This document shows, in pieces, positions 29,098-34,410 of a stretch of 64,000 nucleotides of DNA. The position numbers and the translations under genes are program-made. The stretch comes from a virus. The stretch lies in the IMG/VR virus record IMGVR_UViG_3300008997_000008; one strand, 5' to 3'. Every line of letters begins with the position of its first letter. The first letter of the stretch is position 1. The notes under the pieces are model-generated. The model did no database searches. It saw only the letters and a list, made by a program, of their open reading frames with translations, and was not told where the DNA came from.

Positions 29098-29123
29098 CTT
29101 CGGTGGCCAGCCACCAGGTGACC

Positions 29124-30089
29124 ATGCCATTCTTCTTCGAAGAGAACGACGACTACGCGCACATTCTGATCGACGGCCAGCACCTGGTCCATCGCTCCGC
29201 CTATGCGCACTCGGAACTCTCGTTCGTCAACGATGAGGGGCGAGAGATCTTCACGGGAGTGATCTACGGGTTCCTCTCGGTCGTCGGCCGTGTTTGGAAG
29301 AGGTACGCCGACAGGCCCTGCTCAGTCACTGTGTGCTGGGAAGGAGGCTACACTCACCGAACGGCCCTCTATGAGGGATACAAGGCCAGCCGCCGAGTGC
29401 CCCCGGACCCGGAGAAGCAGGCGCAGATGGACTCCATGTTCGCCCAGCAGAGAGTCCTTCGGAGACTCCTGGGAATCCTCGGCTGGAGTCAGGCCCGTGC
29501 CTCCGGATTCGAAGCGGACGACGCGATGGCTACCCTCGCGGCGCGCTACGGGAGCCAGGGTTCCCGAGTCGCGCTCTACACAGGGGACAAGGATCTCCAC
29601 CAGTGTGTCACGGACAAGGTCCACGTCATCTCAGCCCGTCCCAAGGACAGCGACGCGATCTGGACCCCAGACACCGTGCGCGAGCGTTGGGGAGTCGGTC
29701 CGGAGAGAGTCGCCGAGGTTCTGGGCCTTGCGGGGGACGGAGCGGATGACATCCCAGGATGCCCTGGATGTGGGCCTGGGTGGGCGAAGAAGCTCCTCGC
29801 AGGACCGCCCAGAAGCATCCCCCAGCTCCTCCAGGACGCTGAGGCGGGGATACTGACGGGAGAGTTCCAGGGCAAGCGGTGGAGGTCCCCAAGCCTCTCC
29901 AAGAAGCTCCGAGAGAACGCCCAACAGGTACGGGTATCCTGGGAGCTCGCGAAGACCGTATCAGATGCCCCCGTCGAGATAGACAAGGGCGCTCGGGACA
30001 TCGGTCTTCTTCGCCATGCCCTGGAGCAACTCCGGATGTGGAGTCTCCTCGAGGGCAAGTCCTGGGAGAGAATCTCCCAGGTCAGATAG
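29124..30089 (+). CDS. 5'-3' exonuclease / flap endonuclease (Pol I N-terminal / T5 D15 family)
   Basis: LIDGQHLVHRSAYA, GFEADD, TGDKDLHQ, LAGDGADDIPGCPGCGPGWAKKLL. Confidence 0.92.
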   Translation: MPFFFEENDDYAHILIDGQHLVHRSAYAHSELSFVNDEGREIFTGVIYGFLSVVGRVWKRYADRPCSVTVCWEGGYTHRTALYEGYKASRRVPPDPEKQAQMDSMFAQQRVLRRLLGILGWSQARASGFEADDAMATLAARYGSQGSRVALYTGDKDLHQCVTDKVHVISARPKDSDAIWTPDTVRERWGVGPERVAEVLGLAGDGADDIPGCPGCGPGWAKKLLAGPPRSIPQLLQDAEAGILTGEFQGKRWRSPSLSKKLRENAQQVRVSWELAKTVSDAPVEIDKGARDIGLLRHALEQLRMWSLLEGKSWERISQVR

Positions 30090-30678
30090 AGAAGGGCCTC
30101 TCGGGGACGATGTCCCGAGACTTCCTCATGTGGACTTTCCAGAGGCCCGTGCTGGGGTCTGGCATCCAACGGATCCGCATACTCGCGTGGTGTCGCCAGG
30201 TGCCGTTGGGGGGTTCGTCGTTGAACCGAGGCTCCGAGAAGAATCCGACCACGCAGGCGTTCGCCGTCATGACTCGAGCCTGGATTCGGGGGAGAGCATC
30301 GGTCCAGAGGGCGAACTGGGGAGTTCCAGGGGTGTGTGCCACGTAGTCCGGGTGGTACATCAGGACGATCCGCGGTCCGTCGGGGTCGGACAGGTGCTGC
30401 TCGATGAACGCTTCGGTGTCCAGTACGGTTCCCGGGGAGCAGTAGATGAGCGCATCATCCGTGAACCGAAGCCCATGCTTGGCGAGAGCCTCGCTGGAGA
30501 GAGCCATCACGTAGTCGAGGAACAGGACCCGGTGCCCGTGGTCGATGGCTGTCTTGAGAACCTGGACCGCGACTTCCGAGAAGCCGGTTCCCAGAGGAGC
30601 CCACATCTGAGTGATCCCCGGTCGGGGAAACCCCTTGGCGTGGTGGTCGAGCGTAGTGAAGCCTGTGGGAACGATCAT
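30082..30678 (-). CDS. RecA-fold protein with degenerate Walker motifs (paralog B)
   Basis: VPTGFTTLD...GFPRPGITQMWAPLGTGFS...VLFLD...AL...GL...C.P parallels the RecA core, but GKT is absent. Confidence 0.7.
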   Translation of the reverse strand: MIVPTGFTTLDHHAKGFPRPGITQMWAPLGTGFSEVAVQVLKTAIDHGHRVLFLDYVMALSSEALAKHGLRFTDDALIYCSPGTVLDTEAFIEQHLSDPDGPRIVLMYHPDYVAHTPGTPQFALWTDALPRIQARVMTANACVVGFFSEPRFNDEPPNGTWRHHASMRIRWMPDPSTGLWKVHMRKSRDIVPERPFSI

Positions 30679-31268
30679 GCAAGGATCCTCTCTGTTCTGC
30701 CCATGGAGTCGGAGACCATGGATTTACGGATGGTTGCGTAGACACCGTCTTCCCGGTCTTCGATGTTGGCCCAGAGGGAGGAAGGGGAACGCCAGGTGCG
30801 ATCCACCTCGATTTCCGAGAGAGGTGGAAGGATAATCAGCAGAATAGACTCCCGCTCCTGAAGGACCTTCCGGAGATCCTTCAGGAACCCAGCCCATGAG
30901 AAGTCCTCGTTGTAGAGAGCTCGGTCCGGCCGGTTGAGGATCAACAGGGACCTCTTTGGGGCCACAACTGCCATCTTTGAAGCCAAGACAGGGCACCGAG
31001 TCTGCAGGACCGAAACCATCTCTTGATAAGGGCCCCCGATGGCTTCATGGGAGAAGTCTTCCGCGAAGTCAATCGCCAGAGCCTCCCGGCTTCCGGCCAG
31101 AGCCTTGAAAATGCAGACCGTAGCCAGGACGCTTGGGGTGCTTCCCTCTCCGGAGAACACCGATATCCTCCCGATGGGGAGGCCCGGGCAGTTGTCCCGT
31201 GCGCCTGAGATGAGGGCATCCAGGGCCTCGTTGGTCGTCGAGAGAGCGTCGTATTTGATGGGTTCCAT
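30675..31268 (-). CDS. RecA-fold protein with degenerate Walker motifs (paralog A)
   Basis: LSTTNEALDALISG...GLPIGRISVFSGEGSTPSVLA...ALAID; GAGG RBS before ATG 31268. Confidence 0.6.
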   Translation of the reverse strand: MEPIKYDALSTTNEALDALISGARDNCPGLPIGRISVFSGEGSTPSVLATVCIFKALAGSREALAIDFAEDFSHEAIGGPYQEMVSVLQTRCPVLASKMAVVAPKRSLLILNRPDRALYNEDFSWAGFLKDLRKVLQERESILLIILPPLSEIEVDRTWRSPSSLWANIEDREDGVYATIRKSMVSDSMGRTERILA

Positions 31269-31350
31269 GACCTCGATTACCGGTTTCCCAAACGCCCTCC
31301 GAGACGGTATCTGATATATGGGAGGACTCTCCCGAAGGAAGGTGTCGGAC

Positions 31351-32052
31351 ATGGGCAAAGAACTCTTCACCACTGAGTCGGGCAAGACTTTCCGGATCGA
31401 GAGCCTCGCCTTCGCGAACTGGCTCCGTGGGATGGGCGTCAAGCCCGGCATGGATCTGGGGATGTATCTCCGGGGAGACAAGAGCATCCCCGACGCCTGG
31501 GTGAATCAGAGTTCTCCTGTCCGGGGGAAGAGCGTCACCCTGAAGGATCTCGGCGCCACCGGCCGGGCGATTCCCCGAGCGCCTCGGACGGGCCCCTCCA
31601 AGCGCGGGCCGGACATCCCCAAACTCTGGGAGAAGCTTCTCCAAACCATCTGGAAGGAAGTCGGCAAGCCGGACCCTGCCTATGCCGCAGACCTCTACGT
31701 CAACATGGACGTGAGCGGGATGTACCAGGACAGAGCCGATGAAGATGCCTTCCCCGGCTACCTCGAGGGCATCTCCGCCGACGTAGGGCAGAACTGGGAG
31801 TGGAGCCTTCCCGGCAAGGTGCAGGCTCTGTGGGATCGCCTCTCCATGGCTCTGGACTCTGGGACGCACAAGCCCATGGAGTACTACGAGCGCCACCAGC
31901 CCTACTACACGACCCGGCAGGCACGAGCGGCTCTGCGGGAGATCTACGCCAGCGCCTGGCATGATGGCATGCAGAAGGGCTGGCAGCAGCTCAAGAAGAA
32001 CCCGGCAGAGATGGCCCGCCTCAACAAGATGAGGGCGGAGCACTCCCGTTGA
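31351..32052 (+). CDS. Hypothetical protein, possibly late-expressed
   Basis: CGGT-N7-ATAT at 31305-31319; AAGG RBS; coding-like codon usage. Confidence 0.65.
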   Translation: MGKELFTTESGKTFRIESLAFANWLRGMGVKPGMDLGMYLRGDKSIPDAWVNQSSPVRGKSVTLKDLGATGRAIPRAPRTGPSKRGPDIPKLWEKLLQTIWKEVGKPDPAYAADLYVNMDVSGMYQDRADEDAFPGYLEGISADVGQNWEWSLPGKVQALWDRLSMALDSGTHKPMEYYERHQPYYTTRQARAALREIYASAWHDGMQKGWQQLKKNPAEMARLNKMRAEHSR

Positions 32053-32231
32053 GCGTCGTCCACGCGGCGCAAGACCAGGACATCCAAGGACCTCCCGGTA
32101 AAAGGGTCCGTAGAGCTTGGTGTGGGGAAATGGTCTCGGTACACAGAGCAACCGAGAACCCCAACAACCGGAGAGTGACCTGCCCCCGCTGCCGGGAGAG
32201 GCTCACCAAGGATGGCGTCTATCTGCCCTGA
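32049..32231 (+). CDS. Small Zn-binding hypothetical protein
   Basis: H...WCG...VTCPRC; overlaps the upstream stop. Confidence 0.5.
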   Translation: MSVVHAAQDQDIQGPPGKRVRRAWCGEMVSVHRATENPNNRRVTCPRCRERLTKDGVYLP

Positions 32232-32602
32232 CGCTTCCGCGCGAGACGCTGCTCCCGCTGCTCTTGGCGACGCTCCTCGAGGATCTCCCCGAACGACCGG
32301 ATGCCAATCAGGCTGAGACCCACCTGACGGGCGTACTCCTGAAGCATGTACGGGTGCCAGGTCGCGCCGGCCAAGCGGAGACGACGGGAATCCAGGATAT
32401 CGTATTCCCAGCCATCCTTGGTGATCCCCTCCTTGTCGCGGAACACGAAGATGACCTGGTTCAGCCCACGGGAGACAAACAGGAAGACCTCCCCCTCTTG
32501 CAGATCCCCAGGGTACTCCGGGGACTTCCGGTAGATCTTGAGGTTGGTGGCCTCGCTCCGCTGGAAGGAGCACATGATGATCCCTTTGAGACGTAGCTTC
32601 AC
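32219..32602 (-). CDS. Hypothetical protein
   Basis: GGAGG RBS before GTG 32602. Confidence 0.6.
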   Translation of the reverse strand: MKLRLKGIIMCSFQRSEATNLKIYRKSPEYPGDLQEGEVFLFVSRGLNQVIFVFRDKEGITKDGWEYDILDSRRLRLAGATWHPYMLQEYARQVGLSLIGIRSFGEILEERRQEQREQRLARKRQGR

Positions 32603-33120
32603 GGCGTGTCTCCTCCGAGGTTGAACCTCTGTTTGAATGTGACGGTGGCTTCCCCGCCAGAGATGTTGAGTGTCTCGACCCCAAGAGCCTTCATCCACTG
32701 GTAGGTCTGTTCCAGACGGGACTCCAGGTCATCCGCTGTGGAGGTCAGAACCTCCGTCGGGACTGTGAGGGCGGTCACAGCCTCCGGGCCTGCCCCAGCC
32801 GGGGCTCGCGGTTCCGGATCCGGAGGAGCGGTCTCGGAAGGAGGCATGAGACCATTGAGGGTCTTGTAGCTGAGGGTGACACCATAGAGCTTCTTGATCT
32901 CGATTTGAGCTGCGTTCCGAGTCCTCCCTTCCGAGAGAAGGAACCCAGCCCGCGCCAGGGCCTGTTGTCTGGTGGAGTCCTTCTCCCGCATATCCTTCCG
33001 GTAGTTGGCCAGAGTTTGCGTGGAGATTCCCTTCCCGTACTTCTCCTTGCAGTGTGCTTGGATCTCTTGATTGGTGGCCCCCGCACGGAGCATTCGCAGG
33101 GCATCTGATGCTTTGGACAT
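32599..33120 (-). CDS. Tandem-HTH putative transcription regulator
   Basis: GATNQEIQ...KYG..IS..TL.NY is repeated as GRTRNAAQ...LYG..LS..TL. Confidence 0.6.
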   Translation of the reverse strand: MSKASDALRMLRAGATNQEIQAHCKEKYGKGISTQTLANYRKDMREKDSTRQQALARAGFLLSEGRTRNAAQIEIKKLYGVTLSYKTLNGLMPPSETAPPDPEPRAPAGAGPEAVTALTVPTEVLTSTADDLESRLEQTYQWMKALGVETLNISGGEATVTFKQRFNLGGDTP

Positions 33121-33206: not shown

Positions 33207-33817
33207 ATGGCTTCCCTTGCCCGTGCCATCGAACTCTGCGACGAACTCCTCAGCCACGCTGCCTGGCTGAGCCTCTCTGATGGGATGCTTCGCCAGAAGA
33301 TCCGGGCCGTCATTGACGAGGTCCCCCCGCTACGGAACAGGAAGAGGGACCGGAGGATCCGCTGGTCCTCCCCCAGGACTTCACCACCGCCAAGAGCCGG
33401 ATGTTTGGCTCCCTGGGAGGCAAGAAGAACTACGACGTGGTTCCGCTCTTCGCCGAGGGCGTGGCGAACCTCAAGGGCTACCGCCTCTCCGATTCCCAGC
33501 GCGACATCTACTTCTGCCACAAGTGTGGCAGAACTGGTGTCAAGCTCTGGCGGCGGACTCACATCTTCGGGGACAGCGTCAAAGGGTGGTGCTCCTTCTG
33601 TGCGATGGAACAGGCCGGCTACGCAGACACCGTCGACAGCGAGGGCCGGAACCACGAGGGGGAGTACTCAGGTCCTCGAGGGTCGGACCAGATCTACAGT
33701 TCGAAGCAGGGGGTGGGCCTGGCCCCGTGGGTCCCCTGCCCCCATGACGGCACCTGGGGGTACACTTCAGTGCCTGCCGAGGGGTGTCTGTGGTGGAAGA
33801 CCATTCCGACGCGTTGA
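33207..33817 (+). CDS. Zn-finger hypothetical protein, apparently split across two frames at a C6 run
   Basis: GAGG RBS and ATG 33207; downstream coding frame (CHKCGRTGVKLWR...CSFCA) is open from 33317; a -1 shift at 33323-33328 joins them. Confidence 0.5.
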
Positions 33818-34410
33818 AGATCATCTTCCTGGACTTCTACGGGGTCATGGACGGACCTCTCCGTAGAGATCTGGACCGGGATGAACGGCTCGACCCCTTG
33901 TGCGGGGCCCGGATCAAGGACCTCTGCGACGAAACAGGGGCTCGGGTCGTCATCATATCAGACGCTGTCCAAATGTTTGAGGAATCTACATACACCTTGG
34001 AGGAGAAAGTCCAGTTTGCCATACAAGACCTGGAGGAGTGTGGAGTCCCCAACGAGCTCGTCATCGGATACACAGACCAGGGGCCGGAGAGCCTCACCTG
34101 GCCAGACCGCCCCCAACAGATCCGCGACTGGATGAAGGGGCGAGAGATCCTCTCCTACGTGATCTTCGACGACCGAGACCTACCATTCTCAGAGGAGAGG
34201 TGTCAATACACCCGGGAGTGGTTCTCATCCAACTGGGTGGAAGAGTGGGGCCCGTGGGAAGGCTGGGAGGCTCGGATGCCGGAACCAGATCCCGAGAGCT
34301 TCTCCCGGTTCATCCGAGTGAGCTCCCGACACGGACTTCGGGACGAAGACGTAGCCCGCGCTCGAGCTATTCTGGAGCGTCCTGTAGGAGCTTGTAGAGC
34401 CCCTGGTTGA
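33814..34410 (+). CDS. HAD-superfamily protein (HAD_SAK_2 / Swiss-army-knife-like)
   Basis: IIFLDFYGV, RVVIIS, RPQQIRDW and YVIFDD; TTGA coupling. Confidence 0.75.
   Translation: MKIIFLDFYGVMDGPLRRDLDRDERLDPLCGARIKDLCDETGARVVIISDAVQMFEESTYTLEEKVQFAIQDLEECGVPNELVIGYTDQGPESLTWPDRPQQIRDWMKGREILSYVIFDDRDLPFSEERCQYTREWFSSNWVEEWGPWEGWEARMPEPDPESFSRFIRVSSRHGLRDEDVARARAILERPVGACRAPG

Follow-up and report, generated by a model that had tools for sequence, protein, structure and literature searches.

What is the role of two short, adjacent RecA-like genes with degenerate ATPase motifs in a phage that encodes an intact RecA elsewhere in its genome? The question is raised by a stretch of 64,000 nucleotides (hereafter, the window) from the IMG/VR virus record IMGVR_UViG_3300008997_000008, a 126-kb record with an estimated completeness of 28%. 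The two genes lie on the minus strand and are designated gene B (P0001, 30082..30678, 198 aa) and gene A (P0002, 30675..31268, 197 aa, ATG at 31268). In protein database searches, identical A and B proteins were found on six public contigs, the longest of 338,860 bp; given this length, the genome carrying them is that of a huge uncultured phage. A first-pass annotation, made from the DNA letters, had described both open reading frames (ORFs) as following the RecA core and as paralogs of each other with broken Walker motifs.

RecA ancestry and state of the ATPase motifs

The likeness of both proteins to RecA was assessed with a hidden Markov model (HMM) built from 120 huge-phage RecAs, each protein part being compared with 1000 shuffles. 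The N-terminal part of B scored 15.1 bits and that of A 12.5 bits (best shuffle 6.6), and neither score was reached by any shuffle (0/1000 in each case). For the C-terminal part of B (0.3 bits), the score was reached by 4/1000 shuffles, a marginal result in the correct register, and for that of A (-2.9 bits) by 234/1000, which is not significant alone. Because the N-terminal scores were unmatched by 1000 shuffles, RecA ancestry can be regarded as shown for both A and B by sequence comparison, and the described likeness to the RecA core thus goes beyond chance.

Based on general family models, the relationship of B to RecA would be barely visible. B reached E 0.38 and 10.6 bits against Pfam RecA (PF00154; cut-off 27), 10.9 bits against TIGR02012 (cut-off 325) and a weak 0.3 against the UvsX-like PHROG family. 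RecA chains of the PDB matched B at E ~0.1 in the correct register; the lower E-values of 3cmu, 3cmt and 3cmv were disregarded, since these are fusion chains with repeated RecA units. When 1.8 billion representative proteins were scanned in full with HMMER, the sole non-self match of B was P0003 (E = 1.1e-4; 37% identity over 73 residues), a 344-aa RecA-family protein with an intact GPPGTGKT and a Pfam RecA match of 7.8e-18. Among GenBank phages, a RecA-like gene of Bacillus phage YungSlug matched B at 2e-3 over 138 residues (tblastn). The RecA of the same phage matched B by BLASTP at 3e-4 over 192 residues, hhalign gave a probability of 85-89% against RecA, and in the BLASTP and hhalign alignments B was collinear with RecA over 157-192 residues. 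It should be noted that P0003 is an unannotated protein from a 2.5-kb Logan contig, has both Walker A and Walker B intact and has the motif G[LV]RFTDD in common with B.

The single-sequence AlphaFold model of B (predicted local distance difference test, pLDDT, 50.8; predicted template modelling score 0.49) was built without an alignment and is hence unbiased towards RecA. Foldseek on this low-confidence model ranked RecA, RadA and KaiC first (E ~4e-6), and VIA-align against 48,161 representative chains gave XRCC2, RecA, SulA, Rad51, DMC1, UvsX and KaiC at Z 8-8.9. Taken together, B is very probably a RecA-derived protein that probably spans the whole RecA core.

Pfam RecA did not match A. A BLASTP match of A to the phage's own RecA (8e-5) takes in motifs on either side of the P-loop, the clade-specific CPG[FL]P.GR on the N-terminal side and ALxID on the other, and hhalign aligned A with huge-phage RecA with a probability of 78% (E 1.8e-5). 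When whole genomes were searched in six frames, the matches of A fell solely on recA genes, in 6/23 related records and in the closest relative (G001). Language-model features of A pointed to the Rad51, RecA_N, KaiC and BcsE clusters (0.90-0.93). These alignments demonstrate that the N-terminal ~80 aa of A share ancestry with the part of huge-phage RecA around Walker A. A low-stringency alignment of A with RecA is collinear further on, pairing LLILN with LIVFD, TWRSPSS with AWKFYSS and KSMVSDSMGRTE with KCKMSRSQGREE, and the predicted helices and strands of the A and B models are near-identical in order and position, the A model being poor. Because of its length, this collinear alignment, the matching order of secondary structure and the language-model leads, A is probably a full-length homologue of the RecA core.

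A non-RecA fold and pseudogene-like decay had been named beforehand as outcomes that would speak against this assignment, and neither was found. The B model retrieved folds of the RecA superfamily, both frames are intact and of near-equal length, and the coding composition is normal: GC content by codon position (GC1-GC3) resembles that of the adjoining genes, with GC3 of 0.71 for A and 0.79 for B and GC2 of 0.45 and 0.46, respectively.

The description of A and B as paralogs of each other was not supported. No similarity between them was detectable by BLASTP (E = 0.75), and their identity was 20% on 45 shared profile columns. On profile columns, the protein nearest to B was P0003 (39%), and those nearest to A were huge-phage RecAs (32-33%). 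A recent tandem duplication is therefore unsupported. The idea of one recA split in two was also rejected, since A and B each span the same region of the RecA core. The two proteins have in common the strings h-h-h-h-x-[HR]-P-D and RKS, which are too short for testing; A and B may share a common descent, as these strings suggest.

The degenerate ATPase motifs, all encoded on the minus strand, were then placed by alignment. The absence of GKT from both Walker A remnants was confirmed. In B, the remnant APLGTGFS (residues 27-34, 30577..30600), aligned with GPESSGKT of E. coli RecA and GPPGTGKT of P0003, has Phe33 in place of the P-loop Lys and Ala in place of the first Gly. In A, the remnant SGEGSTPS (residues 39-46, 31131..31154), aligned by hhalign and through an HMM with GHESAGKT of huge-phage RecA, has a loop one residue shorter and Thr-Pro instead of Gly-Lys, so that Pro stands at the Lys position. 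P-loop NTPases that lose this Lys can no longer bind nucleotides in the canonical manner.

LIVFD, which forms the Walker B strand in the phage RecA, aligns with LLILN in A and IVLMY in B; its terminal Asp corresponds to D144 of E. coli RecA. The remnant of B, IVLMYHPD (residues 104-111, 30346..30369), has Tyr108 at the Asp position and an Asp three residues later (MAFFT), and strand E104-109 of the B model covers this region. The remnant of A, LLILNRPD (residues 108-115, 30924..30947), has Asn112 at that position and likewise an Asp at +3; its alignment was obtained at low mact, and the matching strand, E108-112, comes from the poor A model. The first-pass statement that Walker B lacks Asp is thus right for the canonical position but not for the motif as a whole, since NRPD and YHPD each bring an Asp three residues downstream.

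At the position of the catalytic Glu (E96 in the IDAEH of E. coli RecA, IDWEND in the phage RecA), B has Val57 (LDYVM), as its reported lack of this residue implied. A has Ala69 there with Glu70 adjoining (IDFAED), so it is uncertain whether A retains the Glu. In place of the Gln of the ISQ/NQ motif, B has Glu and A has Pro, and the loops equivalent to L2 (FNDEPPNG in B, SEIEVDR in A) are acidic as well as shortened. Furthermore, B starts at the TG..LD motif (residue 5), the match of A starts at residue ~10, and both proteins end with the core. The N-terminal polymerisation segment of RecA (~50 aa) and its C-terminal domain are missing from both, which makes B a core-only RecA homologue. By sequence, then, neither A nor B has the Walker A motif, the aligned catalytic Glu, the Asp ending the Walker B strand, the terminal domains or the family-level score of a functional RecA, and both belong to the RecA superfamily through descent alone.

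The phage's own RecA and the genomic slot of A and B

The intact RecA of the same phage is P0004, a protein of 408 aa with GHESAGKT, IDWEND, LIVFDS and ISQ. It is encoded outside the window, ~77 kb from A-B (G000:C1, ~6.5-7.9 kb; L005:1381-2607:+). P0004 belongs to a large, well-conserved family of huge-phage RecAs with >4000 matches on contigs of up to 411 kb. This clade carries an insertion before the P-loop, GG.KN.FGVAPCPGFPRGR. As the phage keeps this intact RecA, A and B are extra proteins rather than replacements.

The exonuclease gene next to A-B retrieved one related locus only, L002. In the closest relative, G001 (288 kb), the exonuclease is 61% and RecA 68% identical. The recA gene of G001 is L004:700-1905:-; the gene that follows, L004:1917-2717:-, looks RuvC-like by eye (LGLDPS...) and is a candidate only. 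Comparison of positions 30082-32218 of the window with L002:6934-8710 revealed a variable slot, bounded by the exonuclease gene and by conserved genes of 159 and 173 aa (32219-33120 in the window). Here the slot contains B, A and an unassignable plus-strand ORF of 233 aa (31351-32052). In G001 it holds an unrelated gene of 208 aa and a protein of 260 aa with a sub-threshold WGR match (E 0.0042, 17.6 bits, cut-off 22). No similarity was found between the gene sets of the two slots, and a six-frame search of G001 revealed no homologue of A or B anywhere in it.

The same search revealed neither A nor B in 23 further related huge-phage records chosen through RecA; apart from two B-like matches, A and B matched solely the recA genes of these records. 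One candidate B homologue, L086 (G020:C1:253165-253317), was rejected as spurious, having an internal TGA and lying antisense to a real plus-strand gene of 289 aa. Another weak B-like six-frame match, L087 (G021:C1:18727-18882), also contains an internal TGA. Beyond the proteins themselves, a word-indexed search of 5.8 billion proteins returned no orthologues of A or B; none of A was found in an IMG/VR pattern scan, and none of either in GenBank phages by tblastn. To judge from these searches, A and B are restricted to one phage lineage, where they occupy a variable slot.

Proposed function and rival explanations

Based on the above results, we suggest, with a probability of about 0.4, that A and B are non-catalytic, core-only RecA paralogs that, as a heterodimer or short hetero-oligomer, modulate the filament of a RecA-family protein, most likely the phage's own. 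The two proteins would be produced in equal amounts and would form a complex that has no ATPase activity and acts by binding. This complex could dock on a RecA-family filament through RecA-type contacts, either core to core or core to N-terminal helix. Because neither protein has the N-terminal polymerisation helix, A-B could accept such a helix but not donate one, and would sit at the end or flank of a filament without propagating it. The likeliest target would be the filament of the phage's own RecA, which is favoured as a partner since A carries the signature of that clade; moreover, as the phage has its own intact RecA, a phage recombinase is a more parsimonious partner than host RecA as a victim. 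The outcome may be an altered nucleation, stability or turnover of the filament in recombination-dependent replication and repair.

Individual elements of this proposal have precedents. The RecA homologue ImuA' is bound via a motif of ImuB that resembles the RecA N-terminus, and ImuA of M. xanthus inhibits recombination and is a binder of RecA (PMC11791113). Filaments of Rad51 are remodelled by RFS-1/RIP-1, a heterodimer of Rad51 paralogs (PMC4518479, PMC5145814). Phages carry core-only RecA homologues, namely Sak4 (PMC5928155, PMC2896510).

Several points weigh against the proposal. For A, single-sequence AlphaFold modelling was unsuccessful (pLDDT 37), so that Foldseek on the resulting model is meaningless, and in the shuffle control the C-terminal half did not resemble RecA significantly. 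The pLDDT of the B model is also low, and its VIA-align scores of Z 8-9 barely exceed the background of 7-8 stated for that tool. The databases searched gave no orthologues and no sequence variants of A or B. The pair is absent from all 24 related huge-phage records, including the closest, so A-B is dispensable for recombination in this lineage. Heterodimerisation is suggested solely by the operon structure, because similarity between A and B is undetectable, and any interaction of A-B with a partner is putative.

The absence of a polymerisation helix and of an ATP site would suit capping of host RecA equally well, and A-B could be a host-directed mimic whose capping or poisoning of host RecA filaments would prevent the SOS response, the induction of a resident prophage or RecA-dependent defence. 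A variable accessory slot, filled by unrelated genes in the closest relative, is typical of host-interaction genes, and inhibition of RecA by direct binding has been reported for M. xanthus ImuA (PMC11791113). However, the clearest likeness of A, including CPGFPRGR, is to the huge-phage RecA clade and not to bacterial RecA, and our literature searches gave no precedent for an anti-SOS protein with a RecA fold. We therefore consider a host-directed mimic unlikely, and somewhat more doubtful its specific form, in which an A-B heterodimer of two independently degenerated RecA cores imitates a filament end, takes up the polymerisation helix of a RecA protomer while providing neither a helix nor an ATP site, and thus caps host RecA and shuts off SOS, prophage induction or RecA-linked defence. 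The same slot would fit a decoy, that is, dead RecA-like proteins that occupy or titrate host sensors of phage recombination proteins; several defence systems and a phage satellite have been reported to target phage-encoded recombinases (PMC11846896). Such a decoy is entirely speculative and seems highly improbable, as PADLOC gave no match for A or B, no other defence-related signal was seen, and a decoy that resembles the trigger might equally activate the sensor.

It is also improbable that A and B are functionless or decaying remnants of recA-like genes that this lineage had acquired or duplicated and whose frames happen to be still open. Their orphan status in a single lineage, the degradation of all catalytic motifs and the lack of sequence variants that could show purifying selection agree with decay. 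On the other hand, the frames are intact and of near-equal length, both termini are cut back precisely to the core, ATGA coupling persists together with a well-spaced Shine-Dalgarno (SD) site, and GC by codon position equals that of the adjoining genes. At ~20-30% identity to any RecA, unconstrained frames would have gained stops. A further possibility is an ImuA- or SulA-like adaptor, a degenerate RecA fold that binds a translesion polymerase complex or blocks division through FtsZ. B is similar in size to ImuA and SulA, its best NCBIfam match is ImuA (E = 4.6e-4, 20.1 bits), and SulA (1oft) is among its top structural matches (Z 8.6 over 108 residues). Nevertheless, the ImuA score lies far under the 150-bit cut-off and is confined to the generic N-terminal RecA block; neither the 126-kb record nor the 288-kb relative, both of which are incomplete, yielded a Y-family polymerase (ImuB); and Pfam gave no SulA match at E <= 1, while the Z of SulA ties with those of many RecA-superfamily folds. 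Adaptors of this kind are thus very unlikely.

Compared with known systems, A-B is closest to ImuA/ImuA', SulA, Csm2-Psy3 and Sak4/RadB, and is a member of none of them. Huge-phage RecA itself (P0004, PF00154) shares the superfamily and the genome, A has its clade signature (CPG[FL]P.GR, ALxID), and the core of B is collinear with it. However, it is twice as long, and A and B lack its N-terminal ~50 aa, C-terminal domain, P-loop Lys, Walker B Asp and ISQ Gln. SulA, which is not known to have ATPase activity, has the size of a cut-down RecA-superfamily-like chain (1oft, 119 residues) and superimposes on 108 residues of the B model at Z 8.6 and a root-mean-square deviation of 3.5. It is, however, an FtsZ binder and a host SOS gene, its structural score ties with those of other RecA-superfamily members, and its Pfam family (PF03846) matched neither A nor B at E <= 1. 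Sak4 and archaeal RadB keep the Walker A motif, whereas A and B lack the P-loop Lys. RadB (TIGR02237) was the second NCBIfam match of B (E 0.031, 14.1 bits, cut-off 172), and the Pfam family AAA_24 (Sak4) did not match A or B at E <= 1. Like A and B, both are core-only proteins of ~200-230 aa, and Sak4 is phage-encoded (PMC5928155, PMC2896510); single-strand annealing activity is reported for Sak4 (PMC5928155).

Csm2-Psy3 and RFS-1/RIP-1 are paired proteins of the Rad51/RecA fold that act on a recombinase filament and not as recombinases, and Psy3-Csm2 (3vu9) and Shu1 (6dex) are among the structural matches of B (Z 7.1-8.0). These pairs are eukaryotic, their sequence relation to A-B is limited to the superfamily, and A-B has no linked partner with a SWIM domain. 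Shu complexes are reported in recent preprints to have ATPase activity (10.1101/2024.04.22.590616, 10.1101/2025.11.17.685403). ImuA, likewise small and derived from RecA, functions through binding to other proteins and gives the best NCBIfam match of B (NF033429; 20.1 bits against a cut-off of 150), whereas A has no match to it. ImuA is found in an SOS cassette and A-B in a phage genome, and no linked ImuB or DnaE2 was found when Y-family polymerase domains were sought in G000 and G001, both incomplete. The ImuA of M. xanthus is an active ATPase (PMC11002988).

Dead filament regulators of the RecA/Rad51 fold are known from eukaryotes (Rad51 paralogs, the Shu complex) and from bacterial mutasomes (ImuA'). 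Our literature searches turned up no phage-encoded pair of dead RecA cores and no description of a phage with such proteins beside its own active RecA, and a comparative review of jumbo phages mentions RecA homologues but no inactive paralogs (PMC7824862). If A-B binds a recombinase, it would offer a minimal system of two proteins of ~200 aa each for studying the non-catalytic control of RecA filaments. If host RecA were the target, A-B would represent a novel type of anti-SOS or anti-defence factor, using protein mimicry as an undescribed route to anti-SOS. The value of the finding is limited by its restriction to one uncultured phage lineage without orthologues and by a function deduced from sequence only.

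Operon layout and neighbouring genes

The two ORFs had been described as ATGA-coupled and each ~198 aa long, which agrees with the lengths found here. As called by program, the ORF of A reaches as far as 31487 (270 aa). The 197-aa form was taken, since the upstream extension is antisense to a divergent plus-strand ORF and the public gene call is also 197 aa. Direct reading of the sequence places the stop of A and the start of B in an ATGA overlap at 30675..30678 (minus strand), by which A and B are predicted to be translationally coupled. An SD-like site, AGAGAGGA (30686-30693, minus strand), lies 8 nt upstream of the ATG of B.

The 82-bp divergent intergenic region (31269..31350) is presumed to contain the promoter of the A-B operon; no sigma-70-like promoter was found in the A-B region. 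On its other side, the divergent plus-strand ORF most likely starts at 31351, preceded by GGAAGG. Just 5' of this ORF, at 31300-31320 (plus strand), lies CGGT-N7-ATAT, a variant of a proposed late-type motif. Should this motif prove genuine, the gene diverging from the A-B operon would be a late one.

At the other end, B converges on a 5'-3' (flap) exonuclease gene (29103..30089, plus strand), as had been noted from the letters. The assignment agrees with Pfam matches to PF02739 (1.1e-30) and PF01367 (5.7e-14), and the 3' ends of the two genes overlap by 8 bp. No convincing terminator was found at this convergent junction. The four terminator-like matches, one of them inside gene A (30838-30856), are no more than shuffles give. 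Further along the plus strand, between the A-B region and pyrC-pyrD, a gene at 33784-34410 encodes a 'Swiss Army Knife RNA repair'-type member of the HAD family (PF18143, 1.8e-13).

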